Assembly: GCA_951406725.2 (NCBI GenBank)
Contig: OX597839.1
Span: 12,214,001-12,278,000 of the forward strand
DNA: 64,000 nt
Origin: Octopus vulgaris
Lineage: Eukaryota
Direction: 5' to 3'
Shown: one piece after another, positions 12,238 through 35,110 of the stretch
How the letters are laid out: each line of letters begins with the position of its first letter
Position numbering within the stretch: position 1 is the first letter of the stretch
The notes under the pieces: model-generated
Databases searched by the model: none
The model's input: only the letters and a program-made list of their open reading frames with translations
Told to the model about the DNA's origin: nothing
Position numbers and translations under genes: made by a program

Positions 12238-12680
<443 letters not shown>

Positions 12681-12762
12681 CGACATCATTGGCAGACGCC
12701 ATTAGAAAAACTTATATATGTTTGCAAAGAGGCCTTCACTTTCATCGCGACCTGGTGGTTAC

Positions 12763-12805
12763 CGCCCGTTGACGAGGAACAACAATCCCGAAACTAGTTC
12801 GAGCG
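12763..12805 (+). ncRNA. Minimal type I hammerhead motif (C3U variant)
   Basis: CGCCCG-TTGACGA-GGAacaacaaTCCc-GAA-ACTAGT-T-CGAGCG. Confidence 0.65.
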
Positions 12806-14190
12806 TATCACTCAGGCTTGCGAGGAAGGGATGGCCTCCCTTTGCAAATACTCCAAGGACACTTATATTGTGTCTAAAGCCAGCTAGAGACGAAGATCTC
12901 TTGGGGCTATAAAGCTACAGTAACACCCCCTCCCCAATGTGGTTAGCCATGATAAGATGGCTTCTATACTTTACATTATATATATATATATATATTTACA
13001 CACACAGACACGTGCGCACACACACACATACACACACAATCACATTCGCATACACATTATAAACGACAATTTGGTTTCAAAGACTTGTGTCAGTTTTCCT
13101 GCAGTTCTTTGTCTTGCTGTTGTCGTTGCTGTAATGTAAATTGTTATTTTGTGCGTGTGGTTTTTACCTAGTAATAATCCAGTCGACAACTTCTGTAATT
13201 TGAGCAACAAAAGAACAAAAGTCAAAAGTGAAAGCGAAACATGACGTCAGCACAGAACCAGCAAAATCAACGAGATTACTTCCCTTGCCACAGCGCTCTC
13301 ACACCTTCTTTCATTCACCCCTTTTCTCCCTTCTCTCCCTTAACCCACCCTGTATATCCCTTACCGCGTCTCTCGCGACCCACAAACTTCACATTTACCA
13401 GATGTTGTTAGAAAAAATCTTAAACCATGGGGGTAGGCCGATTAAAAGTTTTATTCCTGCCAAAATAGATTCTGCAGCAATATAAAGATGGCGTCACGTC
13501 ATGTATTCGGGACCCCACCTAACAGGAACTTAGTTATTCTTGTCTGTAGTTTCTCTCTTTTTACCCACATTAACCAATACCACGACCACCACCACTGACT
13601 CATCATGAATCATATTCTCTCTATCATACAAAGACTTTACACCTCATCTCCGTCCACCCAGTCTCACAGTTATTTATTAACATAATACTATAATACTTCT
13701 TGGGTGGCGTAGACAAGCGAACTACGGGAAATTATCGCTGTTGTTCTTTACGTGATGGCGCTGCTGTGATTATTATATGGGTATGTGTCTCTGTGTGTGT
13801 ATATGTATCTGTGTGTGAATGTGTGTGTGACTCTGTGTGTCTGTCAAAGTGTGTGTGTGTGTGTATGTGTGTGTGTGTGTATGTGTGTGTGTGTGTATGT
13901 GTGTGTGTGTGCATTTCCCTACTTCTAGCTTTATTATCTAACTCAAGTGTGCGGTGTTAACTTTCAAATAAAAGCCACTTGTCGATTCATGTGTATATCG
14001 TGTGTTCTTGTTCTTTTTCTTTTCCTTCTTTCAGTCATTCGACGGCGGCCATGCTGCAGCACCACCTTTAGTCGAACGAATCGACGCCAGGACTTTGTGA
14101 AGGCTAGGAATTATTCTCTCGTACCCCTTTGCCGAATTGCTAAGTTACATGAACGTAAACACAGATACACAAACATATACATACATATAT

Positions 14191-19089: not shown

Positions 19090-19326
19090 AGGCGCTGGTG
19101 TGGCTGTGTGGTGAGATCTTGCTTCCCAAATACATTGTTACGGGTTCAGTCCCACAACGTGGCCCCTTGAGCAATCGGCTTCTGCTATTGCCTCGGGTTG
19201 ACCAAAGCCTTGTGAGTAGATTTGGTAGACTGAAACTAAAAGACGCTCCTTGTATACACACACACACACACACATACATATATATATATACATATATATG
19301 TATATATGGATGTATGTATAAATGCG

Positions 19327-19357
<31 letters not shown>

Positions 19358-19595
19358 CAGGGGGGATGGAGGTTGTCATTGTATCTGTGTTTGTCTCCCA
19401 CCACCGGTGGACAATTGGTGTGCTTGCGTCCCCGTAGCTTAGCAGTTCGGCAAAGAGATTGATAAAATAAGTACCAGGCTTGTAGAAGAAGTTCTGGGGA
19501 GGGGATCGATGTCGATTTGTTCGACTAAAAATTGAAGGCGGTAAGGCAGCATGGCCACAGTCTAATGACTGAAACAAGTAAAAGAAGATAAAAGA
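19090..19595 (+). mobile_element. SINE family A (tRNA head, CORE-like block, microsatellite linker, tail); resembles octopus OR-type CORE-SINEs
   Basis: Collinear with the other full copies. Family name is from memory and not searched. Confidence 0.88.
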
Positions 19596-19823
19596 TATAT
19601 CGAATAAGCACAATATATATATTTTTATGAGTTACTAATAGTTCTATGCGAAGGAACATCAATACTGTCTGAGTTGTTATTATTGCATGAAACTATCAGT
19701 AGCTCATAAAATATATATTGGGTTTATTAGATAATAGTATTTATCTCTCGGCAGATGGAGTACTTTTTTTTTTTGTTAATCTTACCATCACGGAACAGTA
19801 CAATATCTATTATATAAAATCCG

Positions 19824-20364: not shown

Positions 20365-20563
20365 TGTGTGTGTGTGTATGTTGGCTCCCACAATCGCTTG
20401 ACAACCGATGTTAGTGCGTTTACATTCCAATAACTTAGCAGTTCGACAAAAATGATCGATAGAACAAGTACTAGGCTAACAAAGAATAAGTCCTGGGGTC
20501 AATTTTTTCGACTAAAAGAGGTGCTCCAGCATGGCCGCAGTCAAATGACTGAAACAAATAAAA

Positions 20564-20565
<2 letters not shown>
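20360..20565 (+). mobile_element. SINE family A 3' half
   Basis: Matches the tail consensus. Confidence 0.85.
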
Positions 20566-20599
<34 letters not shown>

Positions 20600-21632: not shown

Positions 21633-21650
21633 GTAATACCATATATATAT

Positions 21651-22065
21651 AAAACAATAATAAATCTCTGAACGAGATATAAACAGTAACTGCTCCACAA
21701 CGTAAGGGGGATCAGCCATCTGAATGTGGCTAGGGACAGGGCGGGGTGGTGTTGGTGTTACTGATGCTTTTAGCCCAGGCGATCATCGACGTCACCAGAA
21801 GGACTGACACCATATCGGTGTCCTTGTTTGACTGTAAAGGAGGTTATCCTCCTCGAAGATACGGATGCTACATACGGACCGGTTTCGAGGTCATTGCCTC
21901 TTATCAACGTATGGTAAGCACCGTTCCTCGATGAAGGATTCCTCTACAGGCAACATATATAAGATTTTTCACAGTAACTACTGTCACTGATGTAGAAAAA
22001 CTGTCTGAAAACAATAAATCTCTGAACGAGATATAAACAGTAACTGCTATATAGCCACATTCAGA

Positions 22066-22067
<2 letters not shown>
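21651..22067 (-). mobile_element. PLE-type partial tandem pLTR (354-bp period) with a short inverted 5' tag
   Basis: 36-bp direct repeat at 21659-21694 and 22013-22048; 22052-22067 is the reverse complement of 21717-21732; contains a hammerhead. Confidence 0.72.
21871..21913 (-). ncRNA. Minimal type I hammerhead with a U3-A8 core pair
   Basis: CATACG-TTGATAA-GAGG-caatga-CCTC-GAA-ACCGGT-C-CGTATG; all stems perfect, GUC site. Confidence 0.82.
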
Positions 22068-22114
<47 letters not shown>

Positions 22115-22304: not shown

Positions 22305-22690
22305 GTCTGCTTCCCAACTACATGGTTCCAAGTTGAATCCCACTGCGTGACACCTTAGGCAAGTGTCTTCTCCTATAGCTTCAAGCCGACTAAAGGTTTT
22401 TTTCAGTGGATTGGTTATACGGAAACTGTAAAGAAGCCCATTGCATACATATATATATTTATGTGTGTGTGTGTATCTGTCTTTGTGTCTGTGTTTGTCC
22501 CCTACCATTGCCTAACAACCCGTGTCAGTGTGTTTACGTCCCAGTAAATTAATAAGTTCGGCCAGGGGGACCGTTAGATTAAGTACGAGCCTTTATTTGA
22601 AATAATACTGGGTTCAATTCATTCAGCTAAAACTCCTCAAAGCAGTGCTCCAGTATGACCGCAGTCTGCTGACTGAAAGAAGTAAAAGAT
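22305..22690 (+). mobile_element. SINE family A, 5'-clipped and diverged
   Basis: Matches the consensus. Confidence 0.82.
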
Positions 22691-23515
22691 AACAGAAACA
22701 TACACACACGCACACAAACACACACACACACATGTATATATGTGCAAACATTTTCCCAGGCAAACGCTTTTTGCTGTTGTCAGACATAGTGAACCATTTC
22801 CTATGAAGTCTCTTATATCTCTGGCTGACAATCACCGGTTCTCACAAATATTACCGAATTTATTTATGCACCTCTCCTCCTCTTTATTAATGAGGTGACA
22901 AAATAAATTATGCGTCCATATAATTCTTTCTCACCAATGTGTCTAGCGAGTTCAAACAGTAGGAGACCATCTTAATTGTATTAATGTGGCAATATGTCTG
23001 TCAACTTTTCAATCCTCATGATTATTCCCTTGAGAAACTCTAGCGTAACCCGGTCGTTCGGAGTATTGAGTATGAATTCAAGCTGCATCCAGTAGTGGCC
23101 GCCTGGGTTGGGAGATTCGGGCTTTTAGGAGTGTGGAACCACTTCTTAGCCACAATTGTTCCCAGGTCTACTCTGATCCGCCTGGCTTAGTGGTTAAGGT
23201 GATCGTAAGATTGTGGTTTCGAAATCCTGGACCGGGCGATGCGTTGTGTTGTTGCGCAAAACACTTGATTTCATGTTGCTCCAGAGCACTCAGCTGGCAA
23301 AAAAAAACAGAATCCTGTGACGAAGCGGCATCTTGTTCAGGCGTGGAATATATACGCCATGAAACCGGCCCCTTATGAGTCGGTATGGCTCGAGAAGATA
23401 ACTTTACCATTTTTTTTTTTACTCTGACACGGAGCAGTAACACTTGTCAGGGTACCAGCTATGGGTTAAGTAGCATATTAGAGCTTGACCGCCTACGTAT
23501 GTGAAGACTGGATCC

Positions 23516-33767: not shown

Positions 33768-35110
<1,343 letters not shown>

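Follow-up and report, generated by a model that had tools for sequence, protein, structure and literature searches.

Four pairings of hammerhead core positions 3 and 8 amplified within one non-coding repeat family of Octopus vulgaris

Metazoan non-LTR retrozymes are non-coding tandem units (350-390 bp in mussel) that each contain one type I hammerhead ribozyme, and their mobilisation by Penelope-like elements has been proposed (PMC7229834; 10.64898/2026.07.22.740005). Canonical metazoan type I motifs have a helix I of 6 bp, a helix II of 4 bp and a helix III of 1-2 bp with a palindromic loop; a "minimal" class has no helix III, a helix II of 7-8 bp and an extra base after A9 (Cervera 2014; PMC4209133). 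Natural U3-A8 hammerheads were reported in 2011 by Perreault, with this pairing stated to be active in vitro (PMC3088659), and were in print in 2014 for Schistosoma Penelope repeats, with about 1,300 matches (PMC4209133). The supplement of the latter includes a Schistosoma row whose seven-letter core is identical to that of the copy described below and one Saccoglossus Penelope row with U3 and G8; its supplement file 2 holds no C3-A8 row. In a laboratory mutagenesis scan, single changes at the 3-8 pair crippled cleavage and, among pairwise changes, only the G-C swap rescued it (PMC9901934). Non-autonomous Penelope-like elements form partial tandems with an inverted, 5'-truncated arm, carry a 30-40 bp tail at one end, target (TA)n and show no clear target duplication (Craig 2021; PMC8557442). 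That source describes what hammerheads do in Penelope elements and retrozymes as still unclear.

We analysed a 64,000-nt stretch of the Octopus vulgaris genome (the window; GCA_951406725.2, contig OX597839.1, positions 12,214,001 to 12,278,000) that contains one copy of a non-coding hammerhead repeat family. The family is like the published metazoan retrozymes in its tandem units with one type I hammerhead each and in the proposed mobilisation by Penelope-like elements, and like axolotl HHR_Amex1 (PMC7229834) in its weak palindromic helix III. It differs from the published retrozymes in that non-canonical 3-8 pairs dominate and in that the window locus is a lone 1.1-mer. The covariation is the same as in published U3-A8 hammerheads (PMC3088659, PMC4209133) and stands here in a type I motif of canonical size; unlike in those reports, four pyrimidine-purine states coexist as amplified subfamilies. 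The partial tandems, inverted arm, tail, (TA)n targeting and lack of a clear target duplication are those of the elements in PMC8557442, but the unit does not clearly match, in sequence, the termini of the single autonomous Penelope-like family examined. The features of the window copy are as follows.

21913 to 21871, minus strand: type I hammerhead motif (letters read directly and descriptor search)
21878 to 21883, minus strand: six-base palindrome of stem III, predicted dimer interface (two-copy fold; self-complementary variants in other subfamilies)
21827 to 21955, minus strand: extended stem I, long and interrupted, that surrounds the ribozyme (unit fold and covariation)
21695 to 22048, minus strand: one non-coding monomer of the likely retrozyme, 354 bp (family comparison)
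21656 to 21694, minus strand: tail, a repeat of the unit's first 39 bp that gives the main arm its "long" 3' end (direct repeat and long/short arm rule)
22052 to 22067, plus strand: inverted 16-bp stub of the unit's 3' region (same letters as minus-strand 21734 to 21719)
22068 to 22109: (AT)21 target microsatellite adjoining the stub (repeat listing)
21641 to 21651: short (TA)n run adjoining the long 3' end (letters read directly)

The core letters U3 U4 G5 A6 U7 A8 A9 occupy 21907 to 21901 (U3 at 21907, A8 at 21902), so the UUGAUAA core and GUC site of the preliminary description are present, on the minus strand. Stem I has 6 bp (21908-21913 with 21871-21876), and stem II has 4 bp capped by a 6-nt loop and followed by GAAA, a 6-nt palindrome and the GUC site, with a predicted cut between 21877 and 21876. 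Apart from the 3-8 pair all core letters are canonical, and the conserved core (CUGANGA, GAAA, UH and a Watson-Crick 3-8 pair) is matched by way of the published U3-A8 covariant. A strict type I descriptor found one match in the window, compared with 0.01 per shuffled window (100 shuffles). With regard to a putative tertiary contact between loops 1 and 2, two letters of each loop are invariant across 22 subfamily rows. The motif had been called a perfect minimal hammerhead with all stems intact; neither description holds, since stem III as a monomer consists of a single A-U pair with a palindromic loop of 4 nt, and helices of 6 bp, 4 bp and 1-2 bp with a palindromic loop, together with the long extended stem I, place it among canonical metazoan type I motifs and rule out the min-HHR class. 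Rfam reported no hammerhead at the window locus and, at its gathering threshold, gave no match in eight family loci, including both C3-G8 loci tried, so the miss at the window copy is not owed to U3-A8 alone.

The unit is followed by a direct repeat of 39 bp with one mismatch at a spacing of 354 bp; an earlier figure of 36 bp was right in kind and short in length, and the 354-bp spacing stands. It marks where a 1.1-unit partial tandem overlaps itself and corresponds to the tail of about 40 bp seen in the family, which replaces a target-duplication or LTR reading. Small deletions relative to a close relative are visible in the window copy, the family period being mostly 357-360 bp. We read the 16-bp stub as a very short second arm. 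With one ribozyme, the locus cannot release a unit or circle by itself and could be cut in trans only; it also falls below the two-unit standard for an "active" copy (10.64898/2026.07.22.740005). The suggestion that this locus yields a circular RNA is not supported.

With the window unit as query, the 2.8-Gb genome yielded 2018 candidates, and the 40 of these that were scored held 87 matches. The family unit is about 358 bp long and non-coding. Its copies are young and number many hundreds; they mostly differ by 0.3-3% from their own subfamily, and private-change ages (0.3-2.9%) overlap among subfamilies. Arrays reach 7 units at 357-360 bp spacing. The family thus has non-coding tandem monomers with a type I hammerhead in each and is likely a non-LTR retrozyme, in line with one of the two classes, pLTR or retrozyme monomer, first considered for it. 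Within 190 fetched loci we surveyed 139 insertions, of which 84 are inverted; 69 of these 84 combine one long 3' end, which includes the tail, with one short 3' end, which stops before it. Of 207 such 3' ends, 174 lie at (TA)n (10% background). Inverted twin arms, a tail at one end and a microsatellite target are the marks of a Penelope-mobilised element. The same long/short arm rule holds in a young Penelope-like family (99-100% identity among 40 full-length matches listed of 1914 candidates), for at least 9 of its 20 loci examined. In L004 and L131 the arms of a single insertion come from different subfamilies (C-A and C-G in L131), as if from two RNAs. L024, L025, L028 and L029, on one contig (C31), are near-identical copies and probably segmental duplications rather than separate insertions.

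Four loci (L074, L194, L213, L214) have one arm of retrozyme and the other of this Penelope-like element; their common flanks indicate one insertion event that was later duplicated. This chimera, a sample of one, points to a partner enzyme that uses two templates per insertion. The L074 open reading frame matches PF01541 (E = 0.0016) and PF00078 (E = 0.0013), both short of the Pfam cut-offs, and a Pfam search with the whole frame returned no domain; these weak matches suggest that the young Penelope-like family encodes a reverse transcriptase with GIY-YIG. Among the 40 longest stop-free frames of the 190 loci (1.5-4 kb flanks), a Penelope-type reverse transcriptase occurs in L074 only, and no Penelope frame lies between the paired matches, 1.4-3.6 kb apart, at L171 and L174. 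At L206 (8170-8230), the 3' region of the Penelope-like element contains what reads by eye as a hammerhead-like motif, its stem II being 6 bp long and its A9 replaced by C.

U3-A8 is an inherited subfamily state and not private decay. In the 30 best loci, each of the 45 extracted hammerheads has it, and its exact pattern gives 282 matches, 17 of the 100 listed belonging to a second, distant family; two independent private transitions in the window copy are thereby excluded. The second family has the same U3-A8 core, and the window copy's own family also contains C3-G8 relatives. A G8 pattern has 105 matches (99 C3-G8 and 1 U3-G8 among 100 listed), the C3-G8 subfamily amounting to about 104. 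The U3-G8 pattern with a G-U pair at the stem II base has 325 matches and the exact C3-A8 pattern 32, of which 29 form one lineage and 3 are singletons from U-A lineages. Two core-blind searches returned the same states: 42 U-A, 35 C-G, 19 U-G and 4 C-A among 100 listed of 597 matches in the first, and 96 U-G, 2 C-G, 1 U-A and 1 A-G among 100 listed of 109 in the second.

Trees built with columns 3 and 8 masked (113 rows, from 155 near-full units, and 140 rows) place one U-G clade beside U-A rows (100/88), a second U-G clade as sister to another U-A group (100/99), and a 17-row C-A clade (100/95) inside a C-A plus C-G clade (100/100). The C-A subfamily was sampled in 19 insertions with 0.7% private change, which indicates that it spread as such. 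One family thus holds four amplified 3-8 states, U-A, U-G, C-G and C-A. The preliminary description had called U3-A8 a compensatory double change: the inherited pair is borne out, but "compensatory" is too simple, because both single-change states have themselves been amplified as subfamilies, and one scan rescued the pair by the G-C swap only. Given that result the spread of U-G and C-A is notable, and U-A may be slow. U3-A8 also has no claim to novelty, as natural examples are already in PMC3088659 and PMC4209133. The swap is real and already known; what is new is the retrozyme family itself, whose core pairings are unusually varied. In the literature covered, we found neither amplified C3-A8 cores nor four states in one family.

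The direction of change is less clear. Rooting with the distant U3-A8 family, whose 3' part beats all 500 shuffles and whose 5' part does not, attached it inside U-G on a branch of about 1 change per site, a root we distrust. A non-reversible model (62 rows) preferred a root at the U-A/U-G border, with several C-G or C-A roots not rejected. Masking columns 3 and 8 removed the earlier support for C-A as ancestor of C-G and allows either order of the two; since C7-G8 is a CpG, C-A may instead have branched off from an early C-G. RNA editing was discarded as the source of A8G, internal A>G/T>C changes (55/43) being in about the terminal-branch ratio (53/44) and A8 standing unchanged in two C-A contigs.

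Constraint on the rest of the core was examined at ten positions (U4, G5, A6, A9, G12, A13, A14, A15.1, U16.1, C17). Only positions 3, 7 and 8 vary by subfamily; among the 200 core-blind matches listed of 706, changes elsewhere in the core occur in single insertions only, and positions 3 and 8 are pyrimidine and purine in 199. None of 254 internal-branch changes falls in the ten columns (7.4 expected); terminal branches are likewise depleted (1 seen, 11.7 expected), which follows from picking loci by intact-core patterns and marks the tree test as biased. The depletion within U-A lineages (0 of 142 internal changes, 4.1 expected) carries the same ascertainment bias, and that in U-G (P = 0.14) or C-A (P = 0.54) lineages alone is not significant. 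Internal changes within the motif fall at positions 3, 7 and 8, loop 2, the stem II base, stem I and stem III. Across the 22 subfamily rows, 14 of 28 pairs are altered on both sides, a count reached in none of 500 shuffles, which ignore relatedness, and also above all slid controls; the stem I share owes much to two rows of the distant second family. In source lineages, selection seems to preserve the catalytic letters but to demand no more of the 3-8 pair than pyrimidine and purine, so that slow or partial cutting would suffice to spread.

Array length differs with the 3-8 state. C3-G8 insertions hold 1.80 pattern matches on average (n = 55) versus 1.25-1.38 elsewhere (n = 165, p = 0.003), and runs of at least 3 ribozymes occur in 6 of 55 versus 3 of 165 (p = 0.009); in this comparison the U-A and U-G lists cover first contigs only and one U-A row comes from a separate search. 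Age or lineage could explain the difference.

Because stem III is one pair with a palindromic loop, the active fold is predicted only for a dimer. In the window copy the computed energy of the active monomer is -3.1 kcal/mol, compared with -8.7 kcal/mol when stem III is open, that is, 5.6 kcal/mol above its open form; for two copies the double hammerhead is the minimum-energy fold (-26.5 kcal/mol). For several subfamilies the two-copy minimum-energy fold differs from the full double hammerhead. Stem III forms of 6, 7 and 8 nt are all self-complementary, with at most one central mismatch across subfamilies. The fold of the whole unit has z = -4.5, none of 100 shuffles being equally good, and 9 of the 15 pairs in the stem I extension are altered on both sides (22 subfamily rows). 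A U3-A8 subfamily at L156, L158, L166 and L167 has a U-U mismatch at the stem II base and a 7-nt stem III.

Contigs of sequencing runs guessed, not recorded, to be RNA cover the unit. Two contigs rejoin the unit at 357 bases, which tandem DNA explains equally well, and two exact C-A contig pieces, both with A8 unchanged, come from one study. One run, X7, of likewise guessed RNA status, has contigs of C-A, C-G and U-A type.

We put at about 0.68 the probability that the window copy belongs to a young, non-coding U3-A8 family of about 358 bp, likely of non-LTR retrozymes that Penelope-like enzymes copy, whose ribozyme is predicted to be active only as a dimer and probably slower than that of its C3-G8 relatives. 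Transcripts of at least two units would pair through the stem III palindrome and undergo cutting at GUC. A Penelope-like RT/GIY-YIG protein would then reverse-transcribe the linear or circular products, and copying may start where (TA)n is cut, on both strands.

The ribozyme might instead be vestigial in all but the C-G lineages, including the window copy, its letters drifting in a motif dispensable for Penelope-type copying. Such drift would fit the wide occurrence of both single-change states (325 U3-G8 and 32 C3-A8 matches), the low activity of 3-8 mutants in the mutagenesis scan (PMC9901934), the existence of Naiads without hammerheads (PMC8557442), and the inactivity of most Xenopus dimers (10.64898/2026.07.22.740005); the greater number of units in C3-G8 insertions is also what one would expect if circles came from C3-G8 alone. 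Free drift sits poorly, however, with subfamily variation confined to core positions 3, 7 and 8, with the pyrimidine-purine rule in 199 of the 200 matches listed, with the absence, under its ascertainment bias, of internal core changes in U-A lineages, and with a stem III palindrome that has been rebuilt several times, and we consider it unlikely. Another rival, in which a unit's core cuts its partner's site within a double hammerhead, so that weak-core C-A or U-A RNAs would be processed in trans by pairing with C-G relatives, draws on the 6-nt palindrome and compatible stems I common to C-A, C-G and most U-A subfamilies, on mixed dimers that score like homodimers (about -25 kcal/mol), on the mixed arms of L004 and L131, and on the contig types found together in the putative RNA run X7. 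Folding makes such rescue feasible for C-A and poor for U-G, the largest class, whose different 8-nt palindrome mismatches C-G partners; moreover, rescue would release a unit's own core from selection, yet the core is conserved. As a general account it is quite improbable.

That the unit is a pseudo-LTR left by 5' truncation of an autonomous Penelope-like element is the reading we find hardest to sustain, and we hold it to be highly improbable. Hammerheads do sit in pLTRs (PMC4209133), Xenopus retrozymes resemble pLTRs (10.64898/2026.07.22.740005), and one chimera links the units to a Penelope frame. In that chimera, however, the frame is joined head-to-head, outside the pLTR position, and the 3' region of the Penelope-like element differs from the unit; L074 is also the one locus with a Penelope-type reverse transcriptase in the frame survey, so that the pLTR identity first offered beside the retrozyme has no adjoining frame outside this chimera.

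Returning to the retrozyme reading, we tentatively suggest that the family may have walked round the 3-8 pair by way of both mismatched intermediates, from U-A to U-G twice and from U-A through an amplified C-A to C-G, with all four cores cutting in dimers well enough to spread and the cutting rate setting the number of units per insertion. If true, nature would have left a dated record of how a catalytic pair underwent compensatory change, and the part that ribozymes play in Penelope-type transposition could be tested directly. Hundreds of copies carry the four pairings in nearly one scaffold, a natural test of whether jumping depends on cutting; four natural constructs could tell if cutting is required, if it is slow or comes from a partner in trans, and if array length follows.

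Several further repeats were observed. An older family of about 340 bp (L112, L117, L122, L125, L130 and others) is alike in its U3-A8 core and stem II; its stem I letters are fully different, and it is the distantly related second family of the searches above. A LINE of about 5.5 kb (PF03372, PF00078, PF13966) is inserted in U3-G8 units just 5' of the hammerhead, always at the same site and with a duplication of about 20 bp, in 6 insertions at 5 loci (L172, L173, L223-L226) on contigs C4, C18, C19 and C24; its copies fall into two subfamilies (97-100% and 82%). A check of one more locus, L227, showed repeated units and no match to this LINE. Elsewhere in the window, a 66% remnant of a related unit lies at 12678-12927 on the plus strand (E = 5e-4). 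An abundant SINE-like repeat, which we take to be a cephalopod SINE, occurs at 19120-19600, 20400-20580, 22308-22700 and 34089-34666, each time near microsatellites.
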